Shown here: positions 8,542 to 49,572 of the stretch, piece by piece
Position numbering within the stretch: the stretch's first letter is position 1
Layout of the letters: the number at the start of each line of letters is the position of its first letter
From: a virus
Virus record (IMG/VR): IMGVR_UViG_3300042090_000890
Span: 33,915 to 97,914 of that record
Direction: 5' to 3' (one strand)
Length of the DNA: 64,000 nucleotides
Notes under the pieces: generated by a model
Database searches by the model: none
The model's input: the letters and a program-made list of their open reading frames with translations, nothing else
What the model was told of the DNA's origin: nothing
Program-made: the position numbers and the translations under genes

Positions 8542-10740
8542 ATGGCCAACGAAGAAGGCAAGAAAAAGCGGTACCAACAGAGACAAGAAATTGTCGCGTT
8601 GGACCCCAACGCTTTGAAGTTACTCAAAGCGGAAGCTGACGCTCGCCAGAAATCCAACGATGAAGAAGAAGTCACTCCGGCGGATACCGGCGTGTTGGGC
8701 GAGATCGTAAAATCGATCAAAGCTCAGAACGCGATGCAGGCGGCCCAACTGGAGCGAATGTCGTTCCAGGTCGACCCGAACGCGAACTACTCCGGCGCTC
8801 TCGGTTTTTACAAGCTCAAGCAGAACTTAACTCCTGATCATATCATCAAACGGATCTGCGGTCCGGGCGGCGACGAACTCGTTAACGAGATTCTCCAAGC
8901 TCGCTCGAATCACATCTCGTCCTTCGGTCGGCCACGTACCGATCGTTTCAGTGTAGGCTTTGAATTCCAAGACATGGACAAGAACGCCAAGCGTTCGGAA
9001 GAAGATCAGCGGAAGATCCAAGAAATGATCGATGCCGCTAAGAAGACCTTCTGGCAATGCGGTCGCGGTACGCTCGAAGGCGAACTCGACCAAGTAAACC
9101 TGTCTCAATTCTTAAAGCTGGTGACCCGCGATGGACTTGGATTCGGACGCCTAGCTACTGAAAGAGTTTGGTGGACCAATCCAAAAACTGGCAAGAAAGA
9201 GCTGTACGCATGGCGCGCAGCCGATGCCGGAACAATGCTCAAGATTCTGCCGCAGAAAGAGCACGATCAATCTCTCCGCCAAGAAGCTATTCGTCAGTTG
9301 CAACAGATCAAAAACAAAAAGATCGACATCGAGAAGTACAAGAAAGATGAGTACCGCTACGTTCAGGTTATCGAAGGTAAACCTATTCAGACATTCACTG
9401 AAGAGGAAATGGTCATCTACAATTTGTATCCGACGACCGGCATCGAATACAACGGTTACCCCCTGACCCCGATCGATCAAGCCCTTAACGCAATCACGAC
9501 TCACATCAACATCACGGTCCATAACAAACTGTACTTTCAGCACGGTCGCGCATCCAAAGGGATGTTGGTATTCCAGTCGGATTCTATGGACGAGGCAGCT
9601 GCCCAGCGCATTCGCCTACAGTTCCATCAGTCTATCAACTCCGTCCAGAACTCGTGGCGCATGCCGGTGTTCGCGATCGGGTCTGAGGACAAACTGACTT
9701 GGGAAGCAATCGACAACTCAGGCCGCGATGCAGAGTTCCAATACCTCATGGACAACAATGCTCGGGTGATCTTGTCGGCGTTCCAGATGTCGCCGGAAGA
9801 ATTGCCGGGTTACGCCCACCTCGCTCGCGGAACGAACACGCAGGCTCTCTCGGAATCTGACAATGAATGGAAGCTCACCGCAGCCCGCGACGTTGGTTTA
9901 CGTCCTCTGCTAAGCGACATTCAAGATTTCTTGAACACGCACATTCTCCCGTTCGTCGACGCGGAACTCGCGAAGACGCACCAGATCGTGTTAACTGGTC
10001 TCGACAAGGATTCTCCGGAAAAAGAGAATACCCGCCTGCAGCAAGATATGGCCGTTCACATGAACTACAACGAAGTCATGGAACAGGTCGAGAAGAACCC
10101 GATCCCGGTCGAACTGGGCGGCGACTTCCCTCTCAATCCTCAGTACCAAGCAGTCGCGGATAAGTACCTCACGGTCGGCCAGATCCTGGAGAATTTCTTC
10201 AAGGTCAAAGGCGCCGCATCCGATCCTCGTTATCAGTACATCCGTGATCCGTTCTGGTTCCAGAACAAACAGCTCATCCTCCAGGAAGCTCAGATCGCGA
10301 TGCAGCAGTCCATGCAAGCTCAACAGATGATGCAACAGCAAGCGCTGGCCGAGCAAGGTATCGCGACCGATGAGAACGGCAACCCCGTTCAGCCCGGTGA
10401 CGATGACGACAAAGGCGGCGGAGATGACTCCGGCGGAGACGATGATTCGGGCGGAGACGACTCCGGCGGCGGAGATCAGCCTCCGGAACAGACATCCAAG
10501 GCGGAGAAAGCGATCGACATCGTGAAAGAAATCACTGCCAAGAACGTGGCCTGGTCGGCGAACAACTACGTCGTCCTCGAAAAGGCCATCCGCAACAATC
10601 ACAACAGAATCTCGCGACAGCTCCTGAAGCGTCACAATGAACTTGTGACGGCCACGATGGATAACTGGAAGCGCCAGTCCGCGAAGGAACTGGCAGCCAT
10701 GGGCAAAGCGCTCAAAGACGGTAAGAAGAAGGGGAGCTGA
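8542..10740 (+). CDS. Portal protein
   Basis: Typical motifs YNGYPLTPID, KLYFQHG..SKGMLV, DAEFQYL, AFQMSPEEL, GLRPLL; acidic low-complexity tail. Confidence 0.88.
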   Translation: MANEEGKKKRYQQRQEIVALDPNALKLLKAEADARQKSNDEEEVTPADTGVLGEIVKSIKAQNAMQAAQLERMSFQVDPNANYSGALGFYKLKQNLTPDHIIKRICGPGGDELVNEILQARSNHISSFGRPRTDRFSVGFEFQDMDKNAKRSEEDQRKIQEMIDAAKKTFWQCGRGTLEGELDQVNLSQFLKLVTRDGLGFGRLATERVWWTNPKTGKKELYAWRAADAGTMLKILPQKEHDQSLRQEAIRQLQQIKNKKIDIEKYKKDEYRYVQVIEGKPIQTFTEEEMVIYNLYPTTGIEYNGYPLTPIDQALNAITTHINITVHNKLYFQHGRASKGMLVFQSDSMDEAAAQRIRLQFHQSINSVQNSWRMPVFAIGSEDKLTWEAIDNSGRDAEFQYLMDNNARVILSAFQMSPEELPGYAHLARGTNTQALSESDNEWKLTAARDVGLRPLLSDIQDFLNTHILPFVDAELAKTHQIVLTGLDKDSPEKENTRLQQDMAVHMNYNEVMEQVEKNPIPVELGGDFPLNPQYQAVADKYLTVGQILENFFKVKGAASDPRYQYIRDPFWFQNKQLILQEAQIAMQQSMQAQQMMQQQALAEQGIATDENGNPVQPGDDDDKGGGDDSGGDDDSGGDDSGGGDQPPEQTSKAEKAIDIVKEITAKNVAWSANNYVVLEKAIRNNHNRISRQLLKRHNELVTATMDNWKRQSAKELAAMGKALKDGKKKGS
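10414..10476 (+). repeat. GGDD(D)S-coding tandem repeat in portal C-terminus
   Basis: About 4 degenerate ggcggagaYgaY units. Confidence 0.7.
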
Positions 10741-11621
10741 TGAAGCTCACCGACGCCCAGCGGAATGTCATCATCGAACGCATTGAGTCTCTCTTCGAGG
10801 GGACCAAAGCGCGCCTGTTAGGGTCGATGTTCAAAGGCCCGAAGCTATACTTCGAAGTCGTCCGTCGGTCGGACCCTCTGCATACTATCGAAGGCTTGTA
10901 CAATTTCACGCTGAAGACCATGTACGGCGCGACTGCCGAGCCGAACAAGAAAAATATCGAACATCTAGCTGAAATAACTGGGAATTATATGGATTCCCAG
11001 CAGCTGAAGATCAAGAATCACATCTTGGCGGACGTGGCCAAGGCTAAAACGCCGTCAGAAGCGATCCGCTCGATACGCGGTCACTTCGAGCAGGCCGGGA
11101 AGTACGTCGATCTGCTAGTATCGAACGAAACCCGCATCGTTCAGACGTACGCCTCGCGCGAAGGTATCGGCAAACTGGCGTCGGACATCGGAGTGAAAGA
11201 CCCGACCGTCGTATTCCTAGGCGTTTGCGACCATAAAATCTGTAAGTATTGCAAGAGCATGTACCACGACTCTGCGGCGATCCGCAAGCCGAAGCCGTAT
11301 AAGCTGTCTCAGGTACAGGAAGGGTATTTCAAGCCGAAGGATTGGGACGGGAAGACGCCGCACCAGGCTCCGCTACATCCGCGTTGCCGACACGTAATGA
11401 GCTTCGTGCCGCCGAACTTCGGGTTCAACGACGCAGGCGTGATCGAGTTCAAGGAATTCGGCTACGATTACCACAAAGAGTACTGGAAGCTGAAGAAAGC
11501 CGAGGAACTGCCGCCTGACTCAACACCCATGGCGAGTTTCCTGAGTTACGACGAGTACTTGGAGATGAATATCATCCACGAAGCTGAACATCTACACGAT
11601 GAGTTCTGCACGCACGATTAG
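10740..11621 (+). CDS. MuF/SPP1 gp7-like head morphogenesis protein
   Basis: CKYC and PLHPRCRH motifs; directly follows portal. Confidence 0.75.
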   Translation: MKLTDAQRNVIIERIESLFEGTKARLLGSMFKGPKLYFEVVRRSDPLHTIEGLYNFTLKTMYGATAEPNKKNIEHLAEITGNYMDSQQLKIKNHILADVAKAKTPSEAIRSIRGHFEQAGKYVDLLVSNETRIVQTYASREGIGKLASDIGVKDPTVVFLGVCDHKICKYCKSMYHDSAAIRKPKPYKLSQVQEGYFKPKDWDGKTPHQAPLHPRCRHVMSFVPPNFGFNDAGVIEFKEFGYDYHKEYWKLKKAEELPPDSTPMASFLSYDEYLEMNIIHEAEHLHDEFCTHD

Positions 11622-11647: not shown

Positions 11648-13396
11648 TTGGTGGTCACTTTGGGTCTGAAGATTGACGGTATCGCGACATCTGAACACAT
11701 TGATTCGTCCGGTGAATTGCTCATCGTCGAGAATCATGACATCTCCGATCTTGTGTCGGGCAAAGGCGTCATGAATTGGGAGCACTCCAATAAGTCCGAT
11801 GACACGATTGGAGCAATCATCTACGCCAAGAAAATTCTCAAGAAGACCGACTGCGAGAACGACCGCCAGCGAAAATACTGGAATACCGTCAACAAGCCGT
11901 TCGTTTACATCATAGGCGAGCTGTACGATGACGAGGAACATTCAGGTGCGCTTGCCGTCGCCGCCATGATCCGGTACTACGCCAAGAAATCTGAGAATCT
12001 CCTGACAGGCTTCTCCATCGAAGGCGCCACGCTCGAACGGGATGATTATATCCTGAAAGAGTCTGTCGGTCGCCGGGTAGCCGTCACCCTCCGCCCGTGC
12101 AATAAGACTGCAATCGCTGGGTTGCTGGAAGATCCAAAAACGAAAGATATCGCTAAGTCGATCGAGGCAATGATGGCCCGCGTCGATGGCAGCCTCGTCG
12201 AAATCGACTCGGTCATCCTCGACGATATGTTCATGCCGAAGGACCCGATTCTCGACCTACATAAGGCCGTCGAAAGTCTCGCGAAGTCGATCGAAGCGGG
12301 CATGTACAATGTCACTCCGTCGCAGTTGATCGGCCAAGCCGCACTTACCCGCGAGCACATCAGCGGATTCCAGCGGAACCGTGTTAAAGCTGCCGTCCGC
12401 GATTGGGACCGCAAACGTCCTCTCAAGGAAGTTCTGAAGAGCGCTCTACCGGAAGTGTCTGACGATTACATCGGACATTTCGAGAAGTTGGCCGAAGAAT
12501 TGGCACTCAAGAAAAACATGCCATCCACGAAATTAACTCGCGTTGGGGCTAGACATTCGCCAAATCAACATCAAAATGAAGACCAACAGAAGTTGATCGA
12601 AGGCTTGTACTTCGACCCGAAGAGAAAGTTCGGCGGTAAAGATTTTGATCCTGGCCACACCGGCTATCAAACCGCGATCACGAAGCATAAAAATGACGCA
12701 GGCGCGAACGTGTTGGTCAAACAGCCCACGGGCAAATGGGCAGAGAACGCCACTCATTACTACGAGAACGCTCGCGATGTTTTTGGAATGGGCAATCACG
12801 TACCGGTTACGAATTATTTCAAGCCGCCCAAAGGATCTCAGAAATGGGATATGACTACCGATACTACGGATCGTCAGCCTGAAGGCCTGCATCATCAAGC
12901 GATGGAACTTGTCGATAAAGCCAAATCGCCAATGACCATGAACGACAAAGACCTGGCTAAACCGTTGCAAAGAGCATATGATAACGGAGACTTGAACAAA
13001 CTCATGATGATGGATCAGATTCTAGGCGGAGCGTCGGATAGACACCACGGAAACTATCTGATTCATCCTAAAGGCCACGTTATGAACATCGACAACGATC
13101 AGGCTTTTTCTTACAATATACCGGCTCCGACACCGGCGTACATGTATCAGCACATCGATCAGCCGATACACCCGGAAGCGTCAAAATGGATAAAAGGAAT
13201 TGATCCAAAAGCGTTGATCGGGAAGATGGCGGACCAAGGTCGTTCACCGGAAGAAATAAAATCCGCCGCTATGATTCTTAAACTGCATCAGAAATACGCC
13301 GACAAGCCTATGACAGGACGCCAACTGTGGGACACTATAGGCAATCATGCTACGGCAGTTCGTCGTGAAGAGCAGCGCAAGAAGAAGGTAGCATGA
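11648..13396 (+). CDS. Prohead protease fused to a C-terminal PI3/4-kinase/HipA-like domain
   Basis: IDGIATSEHIDSSGE, NWEH, GFSIEG, VAVTLRPCN (prohead protease); C-terminal VLVK, DRHHGNYL, IDNDQAF (kinase); true start may be TTG 11660. Confidence 0.8.
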   Translation: MVVTLGLKIDGIATSEHIDSSGELLIVENHDISDLVSGKGVMNWEHSNKSDDTIGAIIYAKKILKKTDCENDRQRKYWNTVNKPFVYIIGELYDDEEHSGALAVAAMIRYYAKKSENLLTGFSIEGATLERDDYILKESVGRRVAVTLRPCNKTAIAGLLEDPKTKDIAKSIEAMMARVDGSLVEIDSVILDDMFMPKDPILDLHKAVESLAKSIEAGMYNVTPSQLIGQAALTREHISGFQRNRVKAAVRDWDRKRPLKEVLKSALPEVSDDYIGHFEKLAEELALKKNMPSTKLTRVGARHSPNQHQNEDQQKLIEGLYFDPKRKFGGKDFDPGHTGYQTAITKHKNDAGANVLVKQPTGKWAENATHYYENARDVFGMGNHVPVTNYFKPPKGSQKWDMTTDTTDRQPEGLHHQAMELVDKAKSPMTMNDKDLAKPLQRAYDNGDLNKLMMMDQILGGASDRHHGNYLIHPKGHVMNIDNDQAFSYNIPAPTPAYMYQHIDQPIHPEASKWIKGIDPKALIGKMADQGRSPEEIKSAAMILKLHQKYADKPMTGRQLWDTIGNHATAVRREEQRKKKVA

Positions 13397-13998
13397 AAGT
13401 CTACGTAATCAAATCAGATCATTCCGAAGTGCCGTTAGCCGAAGTCCGCACGGACGGCGATACGGCCCACTTCGTAGTCGACAATACAAACGGAAAACTG
13501 CCCCAGATGGTCCAGAGCAGTCTGCCAAAATTACGTGCGATTTGCGACAATTCTTCGCATATGCACATGGAAGAGCCGAAAACAGCGACCGTCAATCTTC
13601 TGCGGTACGTTATGGACAACGGTGATGTGGTCGAGATTACGTCGGACGGCCATACCGTCATGCTCAACGGACACCTCCTGCCGCAAGAAGAGAAGGATGC
13701 GTTGTTCAACGCCTTTACGCGTGGCGAAATCAAAGTCGCTCGTAAGACCGATGTACAGCAGGCATTGCCGGTCCTCCCGTCGAATCCGCCGTCGGAGTAC
13801 GCTAAGCCGCAGAGCAAGATGAATCCGACAGTGCTTGGCATGATAGAAGATGACCAAGACAAAAAAGATACCGCCCGTGAGATGGCCACTCGCGACTATG
13901 ATCCGGCCATTGACGATGCCGAGCTGTCTGATGTAGAAGATGCTGATTGGACGAAAGAATTGATGCGCTGGCTCAAATACGGTGACAAAAATGAATGA
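13393..13998 (+). CDS. Hypothetical protein (head module)
   Basis: Overlapping start/stop with both neighbours. Confidence 0.65.
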   Translation: MKVYVIKSDHSEVPLAEVRTDGDTAHFVVDNTNGKLPQMVQSSLPKLRAICDNSSHMHMEEPKTATVNLLRYVMDNGDVVEITSDGHTVMLNGHLLPQEEKDALFNAFTRGEIKVARKTDVQQALPVLPSNPPSEYAKPQSKMNPTVLGMIEDDQDKKDTAREMATRDYDPAIDDAELSDVEDADWTKELMRWLKYGDKNE

Positions 13999-16900
13999 CG
14001 AAAAGAAATTAGCACCAGACGTACCGGCTGACACACTCCACGCTCACGTGGAGCGCCATATGGCATTACCGGAAGAGTCTCAGTCAGACAATGACAACGA
14101 AGACTTCGCGGCTGAAGTCGCCTCGCATCCGAACCTTGCGCCGCATTCCATTGAGAAGCTGTACAACCACGTGATGAAGCCTGTATCTGCCAATTCTACG
14201 ACGGCGGCCACTGGCGAAGCAGAGCCGATGTCGAATGTGATCGTCGGTAATCTGCTTAGAAATCCTAACGCACCGCAGAATATCAAACAGGACTTTGCGC
14301 TCAAGACGTTTCATCCCGACAATCCGTCGTCCGATCTGCACGAAGAGTTGGCTGATTCCGGCATTCTGAACGAACAGCAATTGAAAGGCATGTCCGAGCA
14401 GGTTTTGAAAGCTGGCAAAGAGCCACACGCATACAAGCACCTTGGCCCGAATTACTACATGAAGTATTTTCGAGGCCGGTCGCAGCAGGACCCCAACGAA
14501 CTCGACGAGGACGGGAAGGAACAGCATTCTCGCGAGATGGAGCTGGGAGAAAAAGGGTTAGTTAACTCGTCTAGGCACACGCCGGAGACATTGGATCAGA
14601 CGATCGACGCGTTTTCGGCTTCGAAACATGACCCGCACGGCCTTATCGAAAAATTGGTTAACAATAGAGAAGACTTGTCTAAAGACCAATTGAATAAGAT
14701 CCATCAATGGTATGATTCCAACAAAAATGAAAAGAGCAACGCCTACAACGACGACTATTATCATAGGCAGCGCATCGATAGCTTGCTAGAGCATAAGAAT
14801 GTCGATCCAGCGTTGCTTGCCAAATATGCTGTAGGCAAACGGGTCAGCACAGAAGCTCTCAAAAATCCACGCCTGCCGCAGGAATCGATCAACGGTATCA
14901 TAAAACGTATAAAAGATCCCAACGAATGGGACACTCGGAACAGGGTAGAAAGTCTTCTCGAAAATCCGTCTATATCGAAAGACCAGGTTCGCGCATTGAT
15001 TCAGAAGGGTTCCAATAAAGCCATCAAGCATCCTCTGGCCGACGAAGCCGCTGTCCGCGACTATTGGCAGAAAGGTTCAAAGGACCTAGACTCATCCCGC
15101 GATATCTTGCAAGCGAAGAATTTACCGCCAGACGTGTTAAAAGAGCTTGTCAATCACAAGAATCAGGAAGTCGCCGTCAAAGCTCTCAACCATCCCAGAG
15201 CGGACATGGACGTGGTCAACGAAGGTCTCAAACGCCGGGCAAAGACCGTACAGGATGCCGCACGGCTACATCCGCTTGTAGCCGAGCAACAGGTCAAAGA
15301 AGGTTTGAAATCGGGCGCGACATCTCTCGCGAACGTGTACACAGATCCGAAATTCGAAGCGCAGTTCGACAAGCTCCCGAAGGTGGACCAGGAAGCGATC
15401 TTCAATAAGGCACACGAGAAGTACCAAGGTACCAACCTCGCCGAGTTGGCCAAGAAGACCAAGGAACGTTCTGAAAACGTCATCAACAGCAAGATGAACC
15501 TGGCCATGGACGAGCGCGTCCCGGCAGCCATCCGCGAAGCGCATGGTAAAGACATTGCCAATATGTTCGAGGATCAGGTCCCGAAGAATCAGATGCTGGT
15601 CCAACGCACGACCGACGTGATGAGCAAAAATCACCCGGACGACAATTCTCGTCTGGTGACGGCCATTTCACATCTTGCGATCAACGGCAACAAAGATGCC
15701 CAGAGAGCGATTCTCAATAATCCTGGCTATCTCTCGGAAGTTCAATCCAATCTGGACTTGAAAGACGCCGAACCAGATTTCCTGGAAAGCGTATATCGCA
15801 AAAGACAGGAGAATCAGGCCAATAACGTACAACTGTACGATCGCGTCGGACACCCGGAATTGTTCGATAAATCCGGCCACACGCTCAGACGTGTTTTCGA
15901 AGCTCCCAACTTGCCGTCTAATGTGTTCGACGAGATTGCTCGGAACGGACAACAGATGGACCAGATCGGTGCCGGAGACTATTTCAAAAGATACAATGAT
16001 CTGCCTGAAGACCAACAGAATCAGAAATACGAGCACATTCTAAATTCCGGTTCGCAAAAGGCAGCCATTTCAGTCGTCCGCGCTAAAGCGCCTCCGGCAT
16101 CTTGGGACCGTGCATTCAACATGCTGACCCCAGACAATAAGCAACGTCTGATCAAAGACGAAGTCGATCACGTGAAAAGTCATAGGCCGGACGTTTTCCA
16201 CAATGCCGTGCTGGGCATGTACAATGATCCGGCAGACGCAGATCGTCCTGGCATGAGCAGATACGAGAGCTATCAAGCGAAAGCCGTTAGCAAATTAGAT
16301 CCGGAATCGCCGAATGACCGCTCGGTACTTGAACAGCTGATCTCAATCCCAGAGGCTCAGCCAGGGCATATGCCAGACGAAGGATTGCTGGATAATATCC
16401 CAGAGAAAATGTACAGCAAGCCCGGTGACGATTCTCTGATTGACCATGCAGCAGCTTCCGGTAAAGGTCCTCTGGCATACAATATGCTTGCCCGGAAGAT
16501 GAACACTCTCAGTCGTGAGGCGTACGTCGGCAGTTACGAATCGGAAGATAAGAAAGCAGCAGCCAGACAGAAAGCTGAAGACCTTGTTACTTACTTGCAC
16601 GGACGTGTTGCGTCGATGCCATCTTTCAGCGACGCGGATACAGATAATCCGACCGCCGAGAATTGGTACTCACTGATGACTCGTCAGAAGCAAGGGTACC
16701 ACGACGATCGGTTCATGGGAGCTTTGAAAAAAGCAGGTGCGAACCTCGATTTCTTGGCCGACATGCCCGGCAAGGACGGCGAACTCGTAAAACGCCAGGC
16801 GCTCACGGACAACCTTCTGTCTACGCAGAAGCTGCAAGAAATGTCGCAGGCCAATTCTGTGAAAGATATTCTGGCCATCGGCAGTCCAAAGTTACGTCAG

Positions 16901-29526: not shown

Positions 29527-29562
29527 GGTATTGTTCAACACAATACTTTTAAGGAGTATCAA

Positions 29563-30842: not shown

Positions 30843-30867
30843 GCGGGCTGGCTTTCCAGCCCGTTTT
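30843..30867 (+). terminator. Intrinsic terminator
   Basis: gcgggctgg-cttt-ccagcccgt followed by a T run. Confidence 0.65.
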
Positions 30868-30886
30868 GATTTATAATGGGGCAACT

Positions 30887-34282: not shown

Positions 34283-34284
34283 CG

Positions 34285-36078: not shown

Positions 36079-37118
36079 TTCTGTACCTTCAATATCCAGG
36101 AGCAGATCGACAGTGGTTCAAGATCACCGATTTTGAGGATCTCAATCCGGTATTCGCCATGTTCCCGATGACTCACGAGATCGCGATGTCATGCGACACG
36201 CTCAAAGAAGCGGTCAACGAGATCGTCGACTACCTGTCCGGCCACGCGATGTCAGCGTGGGTAGAGGACGCAGACCTTTCCAAATCTCTGCGGTCGAAAG
36301 CGCTCGCGCTTGGACTGTCACTCGCAGCTATGGGCGGAGACGGCCACAAGCTACATGCACCTGAAGTGAAGCCCACTCCTCCACAGCAAGCTGGCAAGCA
36401 GGAGACTTCTACAGACTTCGGCAAGCATCCTATGGATCGGTTTCTATGGAACGTCCAACAGCTGGAGTCGTCTGGCGGTTCAAATACGAATCACAAGCCG
36501 GTTGCGTCCGGGAAGTTCAAAGGCAACAAGGCGATCGGAAAGTTTGGATTGCTGAAGCCGACCATCGACGAGTTGAACGTACGCATGCGTGCGAACGGCA
36601 CGATCACGCCGGAGTTCCAGCAGCTGGAGCCGATGTCGCGCGACATGACCGAAGAGTATCTCAGCAAGAACCCGCAGGTCGAGTTGAATCTAGCCCGCAA
36701 ACTGGCAGAACACATAACGACCCGTCAGAAGGGGAATCTCCACAGAGCGGCTTTCTCGTGGTTGCACGGCCACAACCTGCATCCTCAAGACGTGCCGGAC
36801 GAAAAGCTCATCAACAGTGAGTATGTTTCGAAATACAAACAATTCGACAAGGTCAACCCGTTCGCTCCGAAGCGCGGAGTGTCCTCTATGAAGAAGACCA
36901 TGCCCAACATCGATTCCTCCGACTTCAAGACGCAGGTCAAGAACTGGTTCCGGCGCCGAGAGGACGAAGTGACTACCGAGCCGATGCATTCCTCGAACTT
37001 TCAGCCAGATCCGGGCCGCAAGCGGGATGACAAGCTGGACGATATCACTCCAAGCTCCATGAAAGATCCGATGGGACGACTCATGGAGAATATCAAGAGG
37101 GTAAACGATAAGTTATGA
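36075..37118 (+). CDS. Modular protein with lysozyme/lytic-transglycosylase-like domain
   Basis: QLESSGG catalytic-Glu-like motif, AIGKFGL, AAFSWLHG, EYV. Confidence 0.6.
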   Translation: MILYLQYPGADRQWFKITDFEDLNPVFAMFPMTHEIAMSCDTLKEAVNEIVDYLSGHAMSAWVEDADLSKSLRSKALALGLSLAAMGGDGHKLHAPEVKPTPPQQAGKQETSTDFGKHPMDRFLWNVQQLESSGGSNTNHKPVASGKFKGNKAIGKFGLLKPTIDELNVRMRANGTITPEFQQLEPMSRDMTEEYLSKNPQVELNLARKLAEHITTRQKGNLHRAAFSWLHGHNLHPQDVPDEKLINSEYVSKYKQFDKVNPFAPKRGVSSMKKTMPNIDSSDFKTQVKNWFRRREDEVTTEPMHSSNFQPDPGRKRDDKLDDITPSSMKDPMGRLMENIKRVNDKL

Positions 37119-37591
37119 GAATCTCTGCCGATCAAATCGAAGACAAAGGGATAGCCGGTAAAACCGAAGACGGTCGACCGGTAGTTTACATTCTGACCAA
37201 AGGTGGTCTGCACGCATTCTTCGTGAAGACGGCTGAAGGTATCGCTTCGATCGGAGCGGCTCCGCATCTGGCTATTGCTAAGTTCCTGGCCGGTAAGAAA
37301 GAGAAAATCAACTGGGAAGAGGACTTCACCAAATCGGAAGGTCTCGCCAAGTCCGAAGTAGACCAGTTCCAAAAGCTACGTAAGATGATGTTCATGCCGT
37401 CGTTCGACAAGGCAGTCGGACCGGAAGACCTTCTCATGGTCTACAATTTTGAGCGCATGCAGATCGACGTATTGAAAACTGAAGATTTCGCAGAGTCAGA
37501 CTATGCCAAATCATGCCTGGTTCGATCTTGTGCGCTGACAGAGCCTCCGGTTCTGATCGAGGAGTACGCCAATGCAACAAAGCAATCCTAG
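37115..37591 (+). CDS. Hypothetical head-associated protein
   Basis: Coupled ORF; FTKSEGLAKSE motifs. Confidence 0.6.
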   Translation: MRISADQIEDKGIAGKTEDGRPVVYILTKGGLHAFFVKTAEGIASIGAAPHLAIAKFLAGKKEKINWEEDFTKSEGLAKSEVDQFQKLRKMMFMPSFDKAVGPEDLLMVYNFERMQIDVLKTEDFAESDYAKSCLVRSCALTEPPVLIEEYANATKQS

Positions 37592-41017: not shown

Positions 41018-42244
41018 ATGTCTACACAGACATCAGTTTGGGTAATGATAGCGACGGACGGAGTAGCCGACAAGATTCGAGACCTTGTCGATTCTGGCTA
41101 TTTCGCTGAAGCTAAAGACCTAGACTATCACCTCAAATCCATCACAGAAAAAATCAGCGCGCTGATCAACGACAGAGGCGGTTCTGTTAAACTGTCGATC
41201 TACGATCGCCAGGTAATGGAAATGCCCGTCACGGTCGCCGAAGAGCTTCCGTTGATCATCGCTGGTTACCGCGAGGTGTTCGGTTCGCTCATGGCAGTCG
41301 GCATGGGCATGGATCTCAAAGAGGCGTCCACCGCCGCCAAGAAAGCGACCTTCACGAATCAAATTGAATTGTACGATCCGAAGGATGAGTCGTTCGCGTT
41401 GTACAAGACCCTCCAGCTCGAAGCTGACATGTTCCAGCCGCAGCCAAACTTGACTGGTACCGACCAGGAAAATCATCCTGGACCGCCTAAGCCGGATGCG
41501 TACAAGTTCGCAGTTGGTAAAGTGGTACCGGCTCTTTCCGCAGACCAACAGATGCAGGCCGAAGCTCAGATGGTCAATGCTACCATCCAACTTTTGATGG
41601 GACCAACCCAGCAGATGCAGCAACAGCAGCAGGCCCAAGAGCAGCAGCAGGCAGAGCAGGAGAAAGAGCCGCCAGGCAGCTTGCTCGAAGCAATGTCTGG
41701 TGAAAAGAAGACCGACAAGCCGAAAACTGAAACAAAACAGAAAAAAGATAGTGATTCCGATGACTCGGACGAAAGCTCCGAATCCAAGAAAGGCAAGTCT
41801 GACTCAGATTCTGGTTCGGATGAAGATTCCGATGAGGATTCAGACGCAACGAACGAAAAGCTCGGAAAACTTCTATCGTCTGTTCAGGAAAAGATGCCGG
41901 AGCTGATGAAACTTCACGAGAAGAATCCGGAAGCGTTCAAGAAGGTTATCGCTCTCGTGCAGAAGTTGGTCGACGTGGCGAAGGCCAAGAAGTCTGTTAA
42001 GAAATCTGAGATTTCCGATATGACCGAGGACTTGAACAAAGCCCTCCGTTTGACATTTCCTGTAGGCACGGTTCGCAATCGCAAGAAAAAAGTCGTTGTC
42101 GACGGCAAAGCCAAATGGCGCGGCGTGGCAGCTGGCCAAGTAAAAGACATCAAAGGCAACCCCATCTCGGTTGACTCTCACAATGCACACGCCAAAGATG
42201 GCCGAGAAGGCAAAGAGGCGGAGCCGGAAGGGGCACGTGAGTGA
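41018..42244 (+). CDS. Modular protein with N-terminal degenerate mCpol/GGDEF-like domain
   Basis: VMIATDGV...RGGSVKLSIYD...MAVGMGMDLKEA...NQIELYD pattern; Gln- and Asp/Ser-rich linkers. Confidence 0.5.
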   Translation: MSTQTSVWVMIATDGVADKIRDLVDSGYFAEAKDLDYHLKSITEKISALINDRGGSVKLSIYDRQVMEMPVTVAEELPLIIAGYREVFGSLMAVGMGMDLKEASTAAKKATFTNQIELYDPKDESFALYKTLQLEADMFQPQPNLTGTDQENHPGPPKPDAYKFAVGKVVPALSADQQMQAEAQMVNATIQLLMGPTQQMQQQQQAQEQQQAEQEKEPPGSLLEAMSGEKKTDKPKTETKQKKDSDSDDSDESSESKKGKSDSDSGSDEDSDEDSDATNEKLGKLLSSVQEKMPELMKLHEKNPEAFKKVIALVQKLVDVAKAKKSVKKSEISDMTEDLNKALRLTFPVGTVRNRKKKVVVDGKAKWRGVAAGQVKDIKGNPISVDSHNAHAKDGREGKEAEPEGARE

Positions 42245-43242: not shown

Positions 43243-44259
43243 ATGGGCATACAGGCAACAGACATTCTCATAAAGACCATGATCGAAGGCGCCTTGGCTG
43301 ATCTTCGCAAGAATAATTGGATTCTGGACGACATCTACGCCGACCTGGCCCTCGATCCTTTGGCCAAAATGGATTACGGCTGGAAAGAAGTCATGCGTGC
43401 GAAGGAATGGTTTACTGGCAACAACATCGACGTGTACTTGACCAACCGCGTCGACACGCCTCGATTCCCGTGCATATCCATCGTGCGACTGTCGTCCCGC
43501 GAAATGACGGAACGCGACGAAATGGGCGATGGCTTCGATGAAACCGAGATCGTGCCGCACAATGTTACCAATCTGCCCCAACAAATGTATGGCCCATTCA
43601 CTCCGATAGCGTACAACCAATCGACGGGAGTCGTTACTCTGCCGGAAAATCTGACTACGAGCCGCATGTTTGTCGGCCAATTCTTGGTATCGAAGCGTAC
43701 GGGCAAAGCATATGTTATCAATCAGGTTAACGAACCATCCGCCTTCGTTATCGCACCCGGCACGGTAGATGACTTCACGGAAGCGTACATCGCACCTCCG
43801 ACTTCGCTATGGAACCTGAGCAAAGAAAGAACTTGGCTCGAAGAGACTTTCGCCATCGGTATGCATACAGAATCCGACATGAACGAAGCGATCTGGATGC
43901 GCCAGCTCGTTCAATACATCATGCTCCGGTACAAAGAGGCGTACATAGAACGACGTGGTGTGGCTCTATCCACCTTCAACGTCGGATCTATCGACATCAA
44001 TCCTCACTTCAACGGTACGGAGAAAGTATTCTCGTGCATGATGACGTTCACGGGTCAGGTGGAAGCCAACTTCATCAAATATGCTGCCCCGAAGTTGCAG
44101 GGCTTCAAAGTTACGACTTACGTCCTTGACGGACCTAAGACACCTGCAGCATACTTGAAATACGCAGAAGCGCAGGGCTGGGAAATGCAAGGTGACGAAC
44201 CTGCGAAAAGGCCGCCTAAGAAAAAGAAGCCAGATCCTCTTTCAAGAGATGAAGAATGA
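43243..44259 (+). CDS. Tail terminator/completion protein (putative)
   Basis: FPCISI motif and C-terminal beta pattern; position before sheath. Confidence 0.5.
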   Translation: MGIQATDILIKTMIEGALADLRKNNWILDDIYADLALDPLAKMDYGWKEVMRAKEWFTGNNIDVYLTNRVDTPRFPCISIVRLSSREMTERDEMGDGFDETEIVPHNVTNLPQQMYGPFTPIAYNQSTGVVTLPENLTTSRMFVGQFLVSKRTGKAYVINQVNEPSAFVIAPGTVDDFTEAYIAPPTSLWNLSKERTWLEETFAIGMHTESDMNEAIWMRQLVQYIMLRYKEAYIERRGVALSTFNVGSIDINPHFNGTEKVFSCMMTFTGQVEANFIKYAAPKLQGFKVTTYVLDGPKTPAAYLKYAEAQGWEMQGDEPAKRPPKKKKPDPLSRDEE

Positions 44260-46502
44260 AAAAAGTAGTGTGCGTCGCCATACGACATCCGGATGAACCG
44301 AACCTGTTCCTCCACGGGCTTCGTCGCGACAATCACAAGTGGGCTCTACCCGGCGGTCACGCCAAGCCTGGCGAGCTGGACGACGAGGCAGCCAACCGCG
44401 AGCTGGAAGAAGAGACCGGTCTCAAAGGTGTCAAGATCGACAAGGTGCATGATAAAGTGTACGGAAACAACCACGTCGTTCTGCACATGGCAGAGCATCC
44501 GGAAGGCGCGGAGCTTGATCCGCATTCCGATCCAGATAACGAGTTTGTGACATTCAAGTTCCTTGACCCGACCAAGCACGCCAACATGCACGTTCCGGGC
44601 AAGAACAATATCCTGATCAATTGGATGGACGGACACCTCAAGAAAGGCGAGTCGTACGAGGAAGAAACAGAAAAGATTCGTGAAAATCAGAAGAAGCCGG
44701 AAGCCCGCGTCCCGCACAAGTTCAAGGCTGCTAAGTGGACGTTCAAAAACGGTCACCCTAGATGTTTCACATGCGGGCAGGAAGAGCCTGTGTCGGGCAC
44801 ATGCGAAGCTCGCCTAGATAAATCTCAGCCGCGTTCTAAGTTAACGGTCGAGCCATTTGCAGTCGACAAATCCGTCTTCGACCCTCGTAAGCACGACTTC
44901 ATAGTTCGCATGCACAAAGGCGGAAAGCAGATCGGATTCGTAGCGATCACTCACAAGCCGAACGGGATCATGCCGTTCAACTTCGAAGTGAACCGACTGC
45001 ATCAGCGTCAAGGCCACGGCACGGCACTTATAAATCATGCGCAGAATGTATCGCGAAAGAAGCTAATTCGCTCACCGGATATGACTCAGGCCGGATCTGC
45101 CTTCGCGGATAAGTATTTGGGACCTGCCAAACCTTTGAAAAAGATCGAGATCATCCACAACGAGGATACGTCGGCCTTGATGAACCGCGTGGAAACCAAG
45201 CATTTCATGCCAGCCGAGAATCTCGATAAGCTACTGAGCGGTATAAAAAGCTCGCTTCCAGACGGAGACCCGGACACTTCCGTCCGATTCAACGTCAATA
45301 AGACTATCTATCTCGACAATCGCGATCTCGATGCGCTCCGCGACAACATGGAGAGAAAGAAGCCACGGTTCAAGGTTCGAATCAGGCAGTATTCGCCGAA
45401 CGGAGAGGAGTGGGAAGATGTTGCATACCTTGAGTTGAAGCTCAAGACAAAAGGCGATCAAACAAAGAAGATCCGCGTCCGCATCCGGGCATCTGATATC
45501 GACGCCATTTCGGAAGGCAAAGTAGTTCGCATCGATGAGGATATCGAAAAGCTCAATCTTGATATCCCAAAGGATATACTTTGGAAGCGGGTAACCTCCA
45601 TCAACACGATCATCGAAAAGTACGGCTTCCGGAAGCAGATTGTAGTGACTTATCAGCGCCGGGCGTACTCTTCCGAAAAGATCCGGGTTACTGTGGATGA
45701 TTCCATCCGGTATTCGGATGCGAAAGCGATAGAGCCAGAATCGGTTCAGATGATAAAGGACTCCGCCTACTGGAAGGCGTTCAAGAAGCGTCACCTCAAG
45801 ATTCGAAAAAGCGATTACGTCATCGTCGAAGTGAAAGAAGAGACCGGCGTACCTAAGTGGCTGCGCAAAGTGCTGGATGAATGCGAAGCCGAGGAAGTGC
45901 GCTTTTCGAAATACTGCGGCGCGATGGTTTCGTTTATCAAAAGTTCCGAGAAGGACGGGCCGATCTCAAGTAACCGTAATATCGACGCCAACTCTGTTCT
46001 ATCTGAGATCGAAGGATACGAAGCGTTCAACAAAGCCGAGCAAGCTCCGCCTGCCGCACCGTACCTTAATTTGGTATACCCCGTCTCCGTCGGCGGTAAG
46101 GCTACACGTCCGGACGGCAAGCCGTTTGAACTGAATGTGAAGGCCTTTGGCAACTCGCCGACACTGAACCATCAGGCCATCCAAGGCCATCTCGAACAGT
46201 ATGCTCTGCATATTCCGGTCGATCAATCCAAGATGACGTACGTCCCGCACAAGCTGAAAGGATTGGACGGCAAAGAAGAGCATGTTCTGGTCGTCTTAGG
46301 CATGCCGAAGAAGCTGGACCACATGAGAGTCGCTCTGTCGGCCATCGGACCGAAAAATGACTCCAAGCCGTATATACCGATCGACGAAGATGACTGGAAC
46401 CGTTTGTCGAAGCTGGGCAACGCTCTGACCGCGAAGGACGCAGGCATATCGTTTCACCCGCCGGAACTCCGATACGGCCCGACAGTCCTAAAGACCTATT
46501 AG
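44256..46502 (+). CDS. Polyvalent protein: Nudix + Zn-ribbon + GNAT + VTC + 2H-like
   Basis: Nudix box GGHAKPGELDDEAANRELEEETG; CFTC..C; QRQGHGTAL; RVETKH, TIYLD, KVRIRQY, YLELKLK, YQRRAY, RVTVD, VEVK, FSKY (VTC). Confidence 0.75.
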   Translation: MKKVVCVAIRHPDEPNLFLHGLRRDNHKWALPGGHAKPGELDDEAANRELEEETGLKGVKIDKVHDKVYGNNHVVLHMAEHPEGAELDPHSDPDNEFVTFKFLDPTKHANMHVPGKNNILINWMDGHLKKGESYEEETEKIRENQKKPEARVPHKFKAAKWTFKNGHPRCFTCGQEEPVSGTCEARLDKSQPRSKLTVEPFAVDKSVFDPRKHDFIVRMHKGGKQIGFVAITHKPNGIMPFNFEVNRLHQRQGHGTALINHAQNVSRKKLIRSPDMTQAGSAFADKYLGPAKPLKKIEIIHNEDTSALMNRVETKHFMPAENLDKLLSGIKSSLPDGDPDTSVRFNVNKTIYLDNRDLDALRDNMERKKPRFKVRIRQYSPNGEEWEDVAYLELKLKTKGDQTKKIRVRIRASDIDAISEGKVVRIDEDIEKLNLDIPKDILWKRVTSINTIIEKYGFRKQIVVTYQRRAYSSEKIRVTVDDSIRYSDAKAIEPESVQMIKDSAYWKAFKKRHLKIRKSDYVIVEVKEETGVPKWLRKVLDECEAEEVRFSKYCGAMVSFIKSSEKDGPISSNRNIDANSVLSEIEGYEAFNKAEQAPPAAPYLNLVYPVSVGGKATRPDGKPFELNVKAFGNSPTLNHQAIQGHLEQYALHIPVDQSKMTYVPHKLKGLDGKEEHVLVVLGMPKKLDHMRVALSAIGPKNDSKPYIPIDEDDWNRLSKLGNALTAKDAGISFHPPELRYGPTVLKTY

Positions 46503-46511: not shown

Positions 46512-46517
46512 TTCGGC

Positions 46518-48275
46518 ATGACCAACGACAATTCCGACTCGCAATTGAAAGGAATTACTTCAGGCGGCGCGAACGGCCTTTCTCAGCACCAATCCGAAGA
46601 TACTCTAGGCGGATCAACCATTTCCGGTGCTGGCTCTCGGAACCCGAACGACCAAATCGATCGACATCGTTTATTCCCCGGTGGAATGCTTTCGTCTCCT
46701 TGGCAAGCCTTCGTCAGAAATGGCTTCCGGCGACCAGTAGCGAAAGCAGAATACAGCACAGATCAGGCTCCTAGCAAGGCGCCCGGAGGCGCGCCGAAGA
46801 TGCAAGGTTTGGGCACCGTAAAGATCAAGGAAACGCCGAAGCCGCAAGGTTATGGCAAGGTCACCGTGAAAGAGCCGCCGAAGCCGCAAGGTTTCGGTCG
46901 CGTGATCCAAAAAGCTCTGCCGAAAGGGTTCAAAGTCGGCATTTCGCCGAAAGACGCCAAAGCGCCGGAAAATCCGGAAATTCATCACGAAGAAACGCAC
47001 GTGGCCGGTGTTGAGATTCCACACACGCTGAGAGAACACCTCAAGGCCGGAAATGTCATTCCGTACGATCACCAACTCCGAGATGAAGCTGCCGAATTTG
47101 TGACCAACGTATGGCGTAAGAATCCACACGACGGCAAGCGCATGTCATCGAGATTACTTGGAGTTACTGAAGACGACGCTCCCGCGAAGCCTGGCAAGGC
47201 GACTGTCAAAGACGAGATGTCAATCAAAAAAGACGGCGAGGCTGGCACTGCCAAGCCGTTGGCACCGCGTTTTCCTTCGAAAGAGCAGGGCGACGCTATC
47301 CAACGTGAGCTATCCGGCGGCCTTCCAAATAAAGAAGGTTGGGCCAACGTTCGACAGGAACTCGGTGCGCTTGTCGGCCTTAACAAAGATGAGAAGCCGC
47401 CTGCGCCGCCGAAGCCAAAACTGGCACCGCCGCCTGACAGCCCGCATGCTCAGCGTCCTAACCAGCGCCAGCGTGTGAAAGACGTCAAGGCAAATCTGAT
47501 GGAACAGATCGCTGCTGATCCGTCCAAATCGAAAGTCTCGCTCAGCACGACCAATTCGAAGCTCGCGAAAGACGGTATCGCATCGTTCAATCTTGTACCG
47601 ATCGAGACCTGCCCCGGCGCCGGTTCATGCGCGAAGTATTGCTATGCAGACACTGGATCATTCCTTCGCTTTTGGAAGACGACAATGCCGCCGCGAGTCG
47701 CAAACTGGCTTGCCTCGCAGAAGCCAGATTTCGTCGAGAAGATGAATGCCATGTTCGGCGACGTAAAAAAGAAAGGCAAGATCAAAGCAATCCGTGTTCA
47801 CGACTCAGGCGACTTCTACTCTCCTGACTACATAAAGAAATGGACTGAAATTGCTCGATCGAATCCGGAGTTGATGTTCTACGCGTATACGAAGAGCCAT
47901 CACCCAAATCTGCGCCAACATCTCAATGAACTTGAGAAGCTGCCAAACTTCAACGTCGTACAATCTATGGGTTCTAAATACGACCATCTTATCGATCCAT
48001 CGAAGCCGCACGCAGTTGTATTTCCTGATGAAGCCTCAATGAAGAAAGCTGGCTACGCCGACGCAATGGAATCAGACTTGGCCGCAGCGAATAAGAACAA
48101 TCGCAAAGTCGGTTTGTATATCCATGGCCAATATGACAAGTCGTACCCCGGTCTCGAAGAACATCTGAAAGGAAATCCTCGTATTATGCAGGAAGTTATG
48201 GAAGCTCTTAAAGGCGGCCCGATCAAGAAAACGGAGTCAAAAGGTCTTCGTAGGTTGATCAAGAGTAAAGCCTAA
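46518..48275 (+). CDS. Modular protein with C-terminal gp88-like (Cys-cluster) domain
   Basis: NSKL, TCPGAGSCAKYCYA, IRVHDSGDFYS, FYAYTK. Confidence 0.7.
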   Translation: MTNDNSDSQLKGITSGGANGLSQHQSEDTLGGSTISGAGSRNPNDQIDRHRLFPGGMLSSPWQAFVRNGFRRPVAKAEYSTDQAPSKAPGGAPKMQGLGTVKIKETPKPQGYGKVTVKEPPKPQGFGRVIQKALPKGFKVGISPKDAKAPENPEIHHEETHVAGVEIPHTLREHLKAGNVIPYDHQLRDEAAEFVTNVWRKNPHDGKRMSSRLLGVTEDDAPAKPGKATVKDEMSIKKDGEAGTAKPLAPRFPSKEQGDAIQRELSGGLPNKEGWANVRQELGALVGLNKDEKPPAPPKPKLAPPPDSPHAQRPNQRQRVKDVKANLMEQIAADPSKSKVSLSTTNSKLAKDGIASFNLVPIETCPGAGSCAKYCYADTGSFLRFWKTTMPPRVANWLASQKPDFVEKMNAMFGDVKKKGKIKAIRVHDSGDFYSPDYIKKWTEIARSNPELMFYAYTKSHHPNLRQHLNELEKLPNFNVVQSMGSKYDHLIDPSKPHAVVFPDEASMKKAGYADAMESDLAAANKNNRKVGLYIHGQYDKSYPGLEEHLKGNPRIMQEVMEALKGGPIKKTESKGLRRLIKSKA

Positions 48276-48279: not shown

Positions 48280-48315
48280 TATGTAAGTCTCGGTTATCTC
48301 TAGGAGAGGTGAAGG

Positions 48316-49572
48316 GTGAATCAAAAATCTGCACTTGAACAAGCGAAGGAACTCTTGAAAGCCGCTAAGGACAATCCGCAGCAATTTCAAGAACTTACGA
48401 AGGCAAGACCTTCCAAACCGAAGAAGGTTATTCCGGATGATATGAATCAACGGAAGGCGATGCTCCGAGACGGCAAGATCACGAAGGAAGAATACGCTCA
48501 GCCGGTCGGCGGCCAGATTTCTGGCGAGTCCACCACTGGCGGTTATCCTTCTGAGGAAGCGAAGAAGCAAGAAATCTCCGGCGATAAGCCAGGTGCTGGC
48601 TACCCTTCCGACAAGATGAAAAAAGACACGATGAATCCTGCCGGTGAAGCGCAAGGCGGCCAATGTGGCCCCGACAATTCAAAAGGCGGATATCCTTCGG
48701 AGCAAATGAAAAAAGACGCGATGGGCATGCAGCCGCAAAAGCCCGGAGCCGCTCCAGCTGCCAAACCGGCACCGATGCCGCAGCCCGTCAAGAAAGATGA
48801 CAAGCCGCATCCAGCTGGTAGCCCTCCCGCTCAAGCCCATAATGTGGCCGAAGGCGATGAGTCACTTCATCATGCAATGAAGATTTTGGACACGCCCGAC
48901 AAGCAGAAGTCGATGCTCGCACATCTTCGCACGCTCCATGAGCCGTCGCAACAGCGTTCTCCGGCAAACCGTCAAGCAGGCGGCATGCCTCCGCAGAAAC
49001 CGAATGCTGCTCCGCAAAGACCGCCGATGCAGAAAGCTGATATGCCCGGAACCTCCACCGCTGGTGCAGGCGCCGCAGGTGTGCCTCTGGCGATGACCGA
49101 AGCTCTGAAACATGCCAAGGAATTGCTCAAGGCAGCCAAAGATGACCCGAAGCGTTTTGCTGAACTGCGCAAGATGTCTTCCGTCGCTGGTTTGGCCACT
49201 TCTGAAAAGAAGACTGCCAAGACAAGCGAGATGAGCCTCGCGATGGCTGAAACGCAGCCGAATCCGAATCCGATGTCTGCAGAGCAGATCAGCCCGTCCA
49301 CTGGCGTAAAAACCGGCGGTGCGAAGGACCCCAACTCCGCTACCCAGCCTAAGACAGCAGAGCAGATCAGTCCGTCTACCAGCGTGAAGCCGGGCGGCGC
49401 GAAAGATCCGAATTCTGCCACTCAGCCGATGACCGCAGAGCAGATCAATGCTTCCTCGACCAAGAAAGGCGAGATGAGCACCAAAAAGTGCGGCACGATG
49501 ATGAGCAAGGATGAGATCAAGGAAGACTTGAAACAGGACTGGAAACCGAAACACTGGAAAAAGGACTGCTAA
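48316..49572 (+). CDS. Low-complexity internal head/scaffold-like protein
   Basis: Duplicated AKELLKAAKD, three GYPS units, repeated MKKD/VKKD/MQKA sites. Confidence 0.6.
   Translation: MNQKSALEQAKELLKAAKDNPQQFQELTKARPSKPKKVIPDDMNQRKAMLRDGKITKEEYAQPVGGQISGESTTGGYPSEEAKKQEISGDKPGAGYPSDKMKKDTMNPAGEAQGGQCGPDNSKGGYPSEQMKKDAMGMQPQKPGAAPAAKPAPMPQPVKKDDKPHPAGSPPAQAHNVAEGDESLHHAMKILDTPDKQKSMLAHLRTLHEPSQQRSPANRQAGGMPPQKPNAAPQRPPMQKADMPGTSTAGAGAAGVPLAMTEALKHAKELLKAAKDDPKRFAELRKMSSVAGLATSEKKTAKTSEMSLAMAETQPNPNPMSAEQISPSTGVKTGGAKDPNSATQPKTAEQISPSTSVKPGGAKDPNSATQPMTAEQINASSTKKGEMSTKKCGTMMSKDEIKEDLKQDWKPKHWKKDC
49279..49449 (+). repeat. 78-nt coding tandem repeat (AEQISPST.VK.GGAKDPNSATQP), ~2.2 copies
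   Basis: Units start at 49279, 49357 and 49435. Confidence 0.8.

Follow-up and report, generated by a model that had tools for sequence, protein, structure and literature searches.

The prohead protease gp21 of phage T4 cuts after Glu (L/I-x-E), and the cuts made by the phiKZ and SPN3US proteases also follow Glu. Herpesvirus assemblin is made as a fusion and self-cleaved free, with a C-terminal partner that contacts the capsid protein. In phiKZ (gp175) and SPN3US (gp245) a single motif marks the cuts in many head proteins (the portal and ejection proteins among them), the protease self-cuts at its C-terminal side and propeptides carry multiple motif copies; these cuts release N-terminal propeptides of 20–254 residues, while 42 of about 50 SPN3US head proteins are uncut (PMC10052503, PMC7411985). 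The polyvalent proteins described by Iyer et al. 2017 (PMC5512222) bring kinase, GNAT, 2H, Nudix-linked and cell-wall modules together among virion genes, are predicted to be packaged and injected, and recombine their modules; their processing was assigned to embedded metallopeptidase domains and their delivery often to MuF or portal fusions. The Dar antirestriction proteins of phage P1 are described in PMC12810830 as head-packaged, processed and acting against host defence after ejection, and processing of DdrB is cited in PMC5512222. Here we analysed a locus of an uncultured virus in which a conserved hydrophobic-x-Lys signal is common to the major capsid protein (MCP) N-terminus, the tail of the prohead protease, the scaffold, the portal N-extension and eight proteins encoded in variable slots. 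The window, meaning the whole stretch of 64,000 nucleotides (nt) analysed, comprises bases 33915–97914 of a 97.9-kb IMG/VR viral contig that is approximately 60% complete, and corresponds to the late module of a myophage of the Mx1 type with an SPO1/Twort-type capsid protein.

Among cultured phages the nearest relative was Mx1 of Myxococcus (169.6 kb), whose MCP is 52% identical and whose late region is syntenic, and 29 uncultured relatives had MCPs 46–99% identical to that of the window. A complete 166-kb relative, G007 (MCP 49% identical), contributed 131 control open reading frames (ORFs). Genes are named by their start position in the window and lie on the + strand. Among thirteen genes preceding the sheath gene, 33224, 37572, 42241 and 43243 are conserved even in Mx1 and resemble structural genes of the connector class. 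The remaining pre-sheath genes occupy variable slots whose content differs among relatives, and three such slots were recognized in the late region, from protease to scaffold, from 33224 to 37572 and from 43243 to the sheath gene.

The clearest connection to a known cleavage came from the MCP (22519..23910; phrog_752, E 1.5e-34), whose N-terminus reads MDD-LVKT-LES-LVKT-LEAG, as a first-pass annotation of this DNA had reported; all the further motif examples from it that were checked were also present at the genes it named (none was given for 38948 or 44256). Homology over the N-arm and core was detected to SPO1 Gp6.1 (9vel, E 3.6e-17) and to the MCP of staphylococcal phage 812 (5lii, 463 aa, E 1.2e-4). 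In the HMMER alignment, E9-S-L-V-K13-T14 of the window protein was placed on E20-D-V-V-K24-S25 of the phage 812 protein, for which a second deposit (9row_B, 439 aa) starts at S25, immediately past K24. SPO1 Gp6.1 has LNKALEAG at the equivalent place, and L-x-K-[AT]-[LM]-E-A-G was present in 27 of 27 relatives. Because the alignment to the mature start of phage 812, the SPO1 sequence and all 27 relatives agree, the predicted maturation cut of the window MCP after K13 (LVK13|T14, nt 22549–22560), which would remove 13 residues, is well founded by homology, and the earlier proposal linking this site to the Lys-cut capsids of SPO1/Twort type was supported by the alignment. The upstream LVK|T (nt 22528–22539) represents a duplication confined to the near clade.

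The candidate enzyme is encoded between the portal and the scaffold and MCP genes (portal, 10740, protease, ..., scaffold, MCP) as a 582-aa fusion (11648..13396; phrog_1028) of a prohead protease (residues 8–161), a mimic of the MCP N-arm and a PI3/4-kinase-like domain. The phrog_1028 'head maturation protease' profile matched residues 9–155 (E 8.8e-7), and since a sequence search of the protease against the PDB gave no match, a fold search was required. An AlphaFold2 (AF2) model of residues 1–300, with a predicted local distance difference test (pLDDT) of 80–95 in its core, returned herpesvirus assemblins as the best Foldseek matches (pseudorabies pUL26N, E 1.4e-4; also the Epstein–Barr virus, human cytomegalovirus and herpes simplex virus proteases) and aligned to T4 gp21 (5jbl) with TMt 0.52 and a root-mean-square deviation of 4.4 over 164 columns. 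As modelled, 11648 shares the assemblin/T4 gp21 fold and is a prohead protease of the serine class; in the sequence alignment of 11 protease homologs, the candidate catalytic residues H46 (NWEH) and S123 (GFSIEG) were invariant.

Behind the protease domain, conserved Phi-x-K sites (Phi, hydrophobic) were found at residues 168–170, 204–206, 211–213, 262–264 and 287–289, with K213 invariant and K170 and K288/K289 nearly so. The 211–213 site opens a 35-residue copy of the capsid arm (mimic at residues 203–245, nt 12254–12382), in which L-x-K-[AST]-[LI]-E-A-G is the same as in the MCP N-arm, and in Mx1 and other relatives this mimic changes together with the MCP of the same phage, KAMEAGNFNA occurring in both Mx1 proteins. 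The 287–289 site (LKK-N, nt 12506–12517) closes the conserved protease module, beyond which relatives diverge completely. The window protein ends in a domain matching PI3_PI4_kinase (Pfam E 6e-6), and the Mx1 fusion has approximately 650 extra residues before its kinase-like domain, in which the conserved module closes with MKK|S and FTK|S lies five residues ahead of the kinase-like module. The Mx1 versions of the multi-domain proteins reach 1239 aa (protease fusion) and 1479 aa (Nudix protein).

We consider it slightly better than an even chance that the protease cuts at the Lys motif, trimming the MCP, processing itself, dismantling the scaffold and separating the modules of the variable-slot proteins within the prohead. 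The cut would follow Lys in hydrophobic-x-Lys|Ser/Ala/Thr, usually with Glu/Asp or Leu/Ile-Glu next. Besides the MCP, which would lose 13 residues, the substrates would be the scaffold at its six sites, the protease itself at four or five sites in its tail, the N-extension of the portal and the eight fast-evolving proteins of the three variable slots. The protease would be freed and then trimmed, the scaffold would be dismantled, and the variable-slot proteins, co-assembled into the prohead, would be split into separate pieces ahead of DNA packaging. One cargo enzyme (kinase-like) would enter fused directly to the protease, behind the capsid N-arm copy, and for the entry of other cargo short N-terminal leaders ending in the motif may serve.

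Expected motif counts came from sequences shuffled in blocks of 10 or 20 residues, a procedure that preserves the Lys-rich local composition. The motif as written in the first-pass annotation, [LMFIV]-x-K-[SATDG], was observed 102 times in head and cargo proteins in comparison to 64–68 expected (z 4.6–5.2), while other proteins gave z 0.8–0.9 and connectors plus tail gave 9 in comparison to 14.7 expected (z -1.6). On reading the sites, most were seen to have Glu or Asp next, and a sharper form with an acidic P2' residue, Phi-x-K-[SATDG]-[ED], occurred 29 times in head and cargo proteins of the window against 9.4 expected from block shuffles (z 6.6–7.1) and against 11 in controls (odds ratio (OR) 3.3, p 6e-4). 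As this form was discovered in the window, it was tested in Mx1 (22 versus 8 in controls, OR 3.8, p 0.001) and in G007 (23 versus 19, or 3.8% versus 0.7% of Lys, OR 5.2, p 2.6e-7). Head and cargo proteins of all three genomes exceeded local shuffles at z 6.3–7.1, with controls at z ≤0.6, and reversed and Arg-substituted decoy motifs gave no such enrichment in the window, Mx1 or G007. The form Phi-x-K-S-[ED] was found 13 times in head and cargo proteins of Mx1 and never in its controls, and outside the MCP, protease and scaffold the count was 8 versus 0. Since the acidic-P2' form is enriched and replicated in Mx1 and G007, the degenerate written motif is a weak proxy for a real, more specific signal.

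The distribution among gene classes followed the same pattern. Connector genes 33224, 37572, 42241 and 43243 carry 0, 0, 1 and 1 motifs, and their Mx1 and G007 homologs are free of Phi-x-K-[SATG]-[ED] except for one FNK|AE in the 42241 homolog of G007. Of the 17 head and cargo proteins, 9 have a motif no more than 32 residues from the N-terminus, compared with 12 of 58 others (p 0.014). To assess conservation, every window protein was aligned to its orthologs with MAFFT, and six decoy motifs were compared at equal flank identity. The motif was retained in 48% of ortholog comparisons versus approximately 32% for the decoys (conservation minus flank identity, Mann–Whitney p 6.5e-5), and about 30 sites in the window were conserved, including all six of the scaffold. 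The earlier view that one motif is common to MCP, protease, scaffold, portal and variable-slot proteins was upheld.

Several results weigh against the proposed cleavage and loading. Counted per Lys, the written form is not commoner in head and cargo proteins (104 of 917) than in window controls (111 of 1131; OR 1.18, p 0.28), so that the enrichment over the Lys-rich background expected by the first-pass annotation failed in this form and stood against local shuffles (z about 5) and in the acidic-P2' form (z about 7), the latter having been picked post hoc in the window and later replicated twice. When the MCP, protease and scaffold sites alone were used to train a weight matrix, which the L-x-K-A-L-E-A-G class dominates, cargo was enriched only about 2-fold and no 44256 or 46518 site scored past the 99% control threshold. 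The motif also occurs several times within folded domains (GNAT, VTC), and some border sites require a relaxed P1' (LKK-N, LKK-I). Homology-block ends from BLAST in nine proteins were within 10 residues of a motif in 29% of cases versus 25% expected (p 0.34), and because block ends are too noisy this global breakpoint test cannot be used as support. A terminus-defined junction test (p about 0.001) was given no weight, as 8 of its 17 events were the same 10740 border and this one repeated event inflated the outcome. With the global test null and the junction test pseudo-replicated, the module-border evidence is a set of good cases and not a statistic; the suggestion that domains are swapped exactly at these sites was supported by cases in the 44256 family and was not significant in the global test.

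Further points on the same side concern the cargo itself. The 2200-aa protein in the protease–scaffold slot (13982..20584; no Pfam match) was rejected as a beads-on-a-string polyprotein, with 14 motifs versus 14.3 expected, and in six relatives it is a single full-length ORF of 2068–2191 aa. The beads-on-a-string proposal fitted several variable-slot proteins, which are modular with border sites, and did not fit this one. A capsid-targeting leader common to different cargo proteins was not found; the leader MN-x-FKR-x-T-x-EY was rejected as a common targeting signal, being confined to one orthologous gene of three genomes. Our literature search found no published Mx1 virion proteome, and the Mx1 genome paper reports none.

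These results could alternatively be explained if, outside the MCP, protease and scaffold, motif copies are simply the grammar of Lys/Glu/Ser-rich helices and linkers and serve no specific function. The per-Lys parity with controls and the null breakpoint test favour this explanation, as does the helical appearance of many copies (ELLKAAKD, EALAKA). However, shuffling within 10-residue blocks preserves local composition and still leaves z at about 7, and neither enrichment nor conservation was seen for the decoys (reversed, shifted, Arg, Glu and Asp). The 8 versus 0 count in Mx1 also argues against it, and sites in Pro/Gly-rich linkers cannot be helical. We regard a purely compositional origin as very improbable, and as the least probable of the explanations considered here.

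The proteins of the capsid-building part of the operon carry the motif at conserved positions. The scaffold-like protein (21671..22516) has six sites (IAK|A, LAK|A, MGK|SE, VVK|A, MNK|TE and LEK|SE) versus 1.2 expected (z 4.6), each retained in 75–100% of 8 orthologs, and scaffolds of Mx1 and G007 contain 4 and 7 Phi-x-K-[SA]-[ED] sites respectively. The portal protein (8542..10740; Pfam Phage_portal E 4.7e-12) has a candidate N-terminal cut at IVK|S (residues 55–58, nt 8704–8715), and [IL]-[VL]-K-S was present in 5 of 5 near relatives inside an otherwise variable N-extension. In the head protein 10740 (10740..11621; no Pfam match, and hence no profile support for the MuF label first given to it), LKK|AE at residues 251–254 (nt 11490–11501) precedes a clade-specific C-terminal extension, and distant homologs stop at that point; this site occurred in 4 of 5 near relatives, while the fifth carries TQK|SQ.

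The multiple copies in the scaffold, and the position of a copy adjoining the capsid N-arm mimic in the protease, can also be interpreted as a short binding or targeting peptide for the procapsid interior, contacting scaffold or capsid, with cleavage mainly restricted to the MCP. The poor transfer of the matrix from canonical cut sites to 44256 and 46518 is in agreement with this interpretation. In contrast, the single site with outside evidence, that of the MCP, is a cut site, and placement at inter-module linkers and after short N-terminal leaders suits release. The T4 targeting sequence reportedly ends in a gp21 site. Taken together, we consider a mainly binding function to be quite improbable.

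The clearest module-border case is the 44256 family. The window protein (44256..46502) consists of a Nudix domain (residues 4–116), a linker, a GNAT domain (approximately 192–290), a VTC domain (310–560) and a 2H-like C-terminal domain (600–748), with Pfam support for NUDIX (9.7e-16), VTC (1.9e-32, 310–560) and GNAT (9e-4, 203–269). Its border sites are LKK|G (nt 44637–44648), LDK|S (nt 44814–44825), LKK-I (nt 45135–45146) and FNK|A (nt 46026–46037). Hydrophobic-x-Lys thus occupies 4 of 4 module borders, as the placement at domain junctions had been described, and 3 of 4 fit the written motif, which LKK-I misses. In the AF2 model all four sites are in, or at the edge of, segments with pLDDT <50 between confident domains. 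The last 150 residues formed a confident fold matching viral 2H phosphodiesterases, including rotavirus VP3 and the penguinpox cGAMP phosphodiesterase.

Relatives of 44256 show the same parts in other arrangements: VTC is absent, Nudix is found on other long proteins, and the C-terminal domain either shares a separate protein with GNAT or occurs by itself after a 26-residue leader. In 7 of 7 contexts Phi-x-K|[SAD] lies 12–20 residues ahead of the C-terminal domain. A site precedes the GNAT start by 4–8 residues in 4 of 6 cases, and Phi-K-K-x occurs at the GNAT end in 6 of 6, with the strict motif in 3. A separate observation concerns catalysis by the 2H-like domain (nt 46026–46502), in which both H-x-T/S motifs are intact in three relatives (the L037, L039 and L040 homologs) and both His are replaced in the window protein, where the motifs read FELNV and PYIPI, as well as in that of the closest relative. 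Because both catalytic His are replaced, the window copy may bind rather than hydrolyse.

The other seven variable-slot proteins gave comparable, if less complete, pictures. A second PI3/4-kinase-like protein (34285..36078; Pfam E 1.2e-6) starts with a 16-residue leader ending in VKK|SE (nt 34324–34335), a site that 4 of 5 orthologs share; one relative has it internally, as MAK|SE at the junction of a 765-aa fusion. In 36075..37118 a possible SLT/destabilase-like central module extends from LSK|S (nt 36276–36287) to MKK|T (nt 36888–36899). The LSK|S-type site was present in 10 of 10 orthologs, and in distant relatives the homologous module begins right after such a site inside proteins of 490–584 aa. 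A small protein (37115..37591) carries the double site FTK|SE-GLAK|SE (nt 37325–37354), with conservation of 0.83 and 0.80, and one relative matches its first 79 residues only, diverging straight after the double site.

The long, largely disordered protein 38948..41002 has 12 motifs versus 5.5 expected, among them LLK|S (nt 38966–38977), MGK|GEMPK|G (nt 40469–40495), MNK|SD (nt 40664–40675) and LGK|SE (nt 40694–40705), the last preceding a Cys-rich C-terminal domain. LLK|S, MGK|G and LGK|SE are among its conserved sites, and LGK|SE-type and LRK|S-type sites persist in relatives of about 30% identity. The N-domain of 41018..42244, weakly mCpol-like, ends at LYK|TLQLE (nt 41399–41410) and is followed by an acidic linker and VKK|SE (nt 41996–42007), the sites being retained in 67–100% of 6 orthologs. 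In the GP88-domain protein (46518..48275; GP88 at 344–525, Pfam 5.8e-36; 10 motifs versus 4.5 expected), LNK|D (nt 47379–47390) and LAK|D (nt 47562–47573) precede the GP88 domain, and homology blocks q92–286 and q354–550 end or start ≤4 residues from them. The mostly disordered, repeat-containing protein 48316..49572 has 8 motifs versus 3.0 expected (MKK|D twice, VKK|D at nt 48787–48798, MQK|AD and LLK|A twice), and its conserved core opens exactly at VKK|D (q158–160) in six relatives. Nearly all of this protein is disordered, and its internal repeats comprise ELLKAAKD-x-P-x-x-F, GGYPSE..MKKD and AEQISPST...GGAKDPNSATQP, each present twice. Another arrangement of the same parts was observed in a 584-aa protein of G007 (L048, G007:C1:32082-33836, minus strand), which chains 2H-like, 38948-like and 36075-like modules with MHK|AE and LEK|GE sites between modules.

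With regard to the domain labels first assigned to these proteins, Nudix, GNAT, VTC, PI3/4-kinase-like (twice), GP88 and 2H-like held on profile or fold search, whereas the lysozyme and mCpol labels are weak leads, resting on an ESM Atlas score of 0.92 with no Pfam support for 36075 and on an mCpol E of 0.15 for 41018. Pfam identified no peptidase domain in the cargo proteins, the sole fused peptidase being the prohead protease. Because enzyme modules are joined by disordered linkers bearing the capsid-site motif, the variable-slot enzymes (Nudix, GNAT, VTC, two PI3/4-kinase-like, 2H-like, GP88 and possibly lysozyme-like) probably enter the head and are separated by cleavage inside it, as judged from sequence.

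A third alternative accepts the motif as a protease site and supposes that the variable-slot proteins are core- or scaffold-like filler that is degraded and expelled, or that they act only late in the infected cell, without being delivered. This would suit 38948, 48316 and much of 41018, which are mostly disordered and of low complexity like a scaffold, and the window 2H-like domain without both catalytic His motifs. Most SPN3US protease cuts likewise remove propeptides that exit the head (PMC10052503). On the other hand, the Nudix, VTC and kinase-like (DRHxxN) modules look catalytically plausible from their sequences, and modules are shuffled as intact units among relatives, which points to selection on folded domains. 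We consider the filler explanation unlikely.

In its fullest form, cleavage at the Lys motif would serve an open 'plug-and-play' cargo. Modules in three head-operon slots, flanked by hydrophobic-x-Lys|Ser-Glu linkers, would be carried into the prohead (through the protease fusion behind a capsid N-arm decoy, or chained), freed by the capsid-maturation protease and injected with the DNA. There they could blunt nucleotide-signal immunity (2H, Nudix, VTC, mCpol-like) and modify host proteins (kinases, GNAT). This extended scheme is tentative, and we consider it possible without thinking it probable; the domain content suggests a host-takeover or anti-defence role.

The gene order of the window places these proteins in context. 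The terminase (4944) is followed by the portal (8542), 10740, the protease fusion (11648), 13393, the 2200-aa protein (13982), 20596, 21148, the scaffold-like gene (21671) and the MCP (22519). A replication-type insert (ligase, exonuclease, DUF932 and two ClpP paralogs) comes after the MCP, and thirteen genes then lead to the sheath (49882) and tube (52669). The first of the connector-class genes (33224..34282) is a conserved post-capsid structural gene, syntenic with Mx1, and served as an internal negative control. At 27616–30528, between the MCP and connector genes, lie the genes for a DUF932 protein, a DEDD-type exonuclease and an ATP-dependent DNA ligase (Pfam E 2e-19); the ligase is encoded by gene 27616, which is not a sheath gene. 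Two adjacent ClpP-family paralogs in the same interval (30866–31498 and 32013–32759; Pfam CLP_protease E 2.6e-28 and 1.6e-34), considered as the head protease, lie outside the portal–MCP interval, unlike the 11648 protease. Their BLAST matches were only in loci of closer relatives, with none in the searched stretches of Mx1 and G007, and they could be a phage-borne ClpP1/ClpP2 pair.

Sequence identity differed along the locus. In a 155-kb relative (L009 plus L033) the MCP is 99%, the sheath 91% and the 2200-aa protein 73.5% identical to those of the window, and in this same genome most proteins between 34285 and 48316 are 67–80% identical, which suggests much faster divergence or replacement. 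Between the terminase and portal genes, a 544-aa protein (6899–8533) has counterparts of 324–331 aa in most relatives, with homology over residues 1–137 and 330–544; the window version and that of its closest relative contain an insertion of approximately 200 residues.

If cleavage at the Lys motif is correct, the Lys-specific rule of a large and unstudied class of prohead proteases, of SPO1/Twort/Mx1 type, would be readable from sequence, and whole sets of head-packaged proteins would become predictable in uncultured phages. Injected effectors would then be built unlike those of T4 and phiKZ, where the protease mostly trims leaders, since several enzymes would derive from one chain and be reshuffled between close relatives. 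As the signal was replicated in cultured Mx1, the prediction is directly testable, and Mx1 grows on Myxococcus xanthus DK1050 (PMC10720576).

In comparison to known systems, the closest capsid homologs are those of Twort/SPO1-type phages (Herelleviridae), which share with the window a homologous MCP and a short N-terminal propeptide ending in hydrophobic-x-Lys; Mx1-like phages differ from them in infecting Myxococcota and in genome content. In the literature we found no published cut-site rule for Herelleviridae and no report of an SPO1/Twort-type protease also cutting a set of effector proteins. The herpesvirus assemblin–scaffold system (pUL26 type) has the same protease fold, but the fusion partner here is a capsid N-arm copy with a kinase-like enzyme or larger cargo, and not a scaffold. 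The P1 Dar proteins are unrelated to the window cargo, and we know of no linker motif shared among them.

The T4 gp21 system (substrates gp23, gp22, gp67, gp68, IPI-III and Alt) resembles the window in that one short motif is common to capsid, core or scaffold and later-injected internal proteins, the protease itself is processed and the fold is shared. T4 mainly removes short N-terminal targeting peptides, whereas in the window the P1 residue is Lys, sites also lie between enzyme modules of one chain and the cargo has no common targeting leader that we could find. Processing in phiKZ and SPN3US was demonstrated by mass spectrometry, whereas that of the window system is a sequence prediction. 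As with polyvalent proteins, at least two effector domains per chain occur among virion genes, and modules are gained, lost and split between relatives; unlike them, the window proteins have no embedded peptidase (MPTase) or MuF domain by Pfam, and their linkers carry the capsid-maturation motif. By analogy, the logic of the window system would match T4 gp21 and phiKZ/SPN3US head maturation and its proteins would match the polyvalent proteins, with differences from both in the Lys at P1, the predicted cuts between enzyme modules beyond leaders, the lack of an embedded peptidase and the protease–cargo fusion behind a copy of the capsid N-arm.

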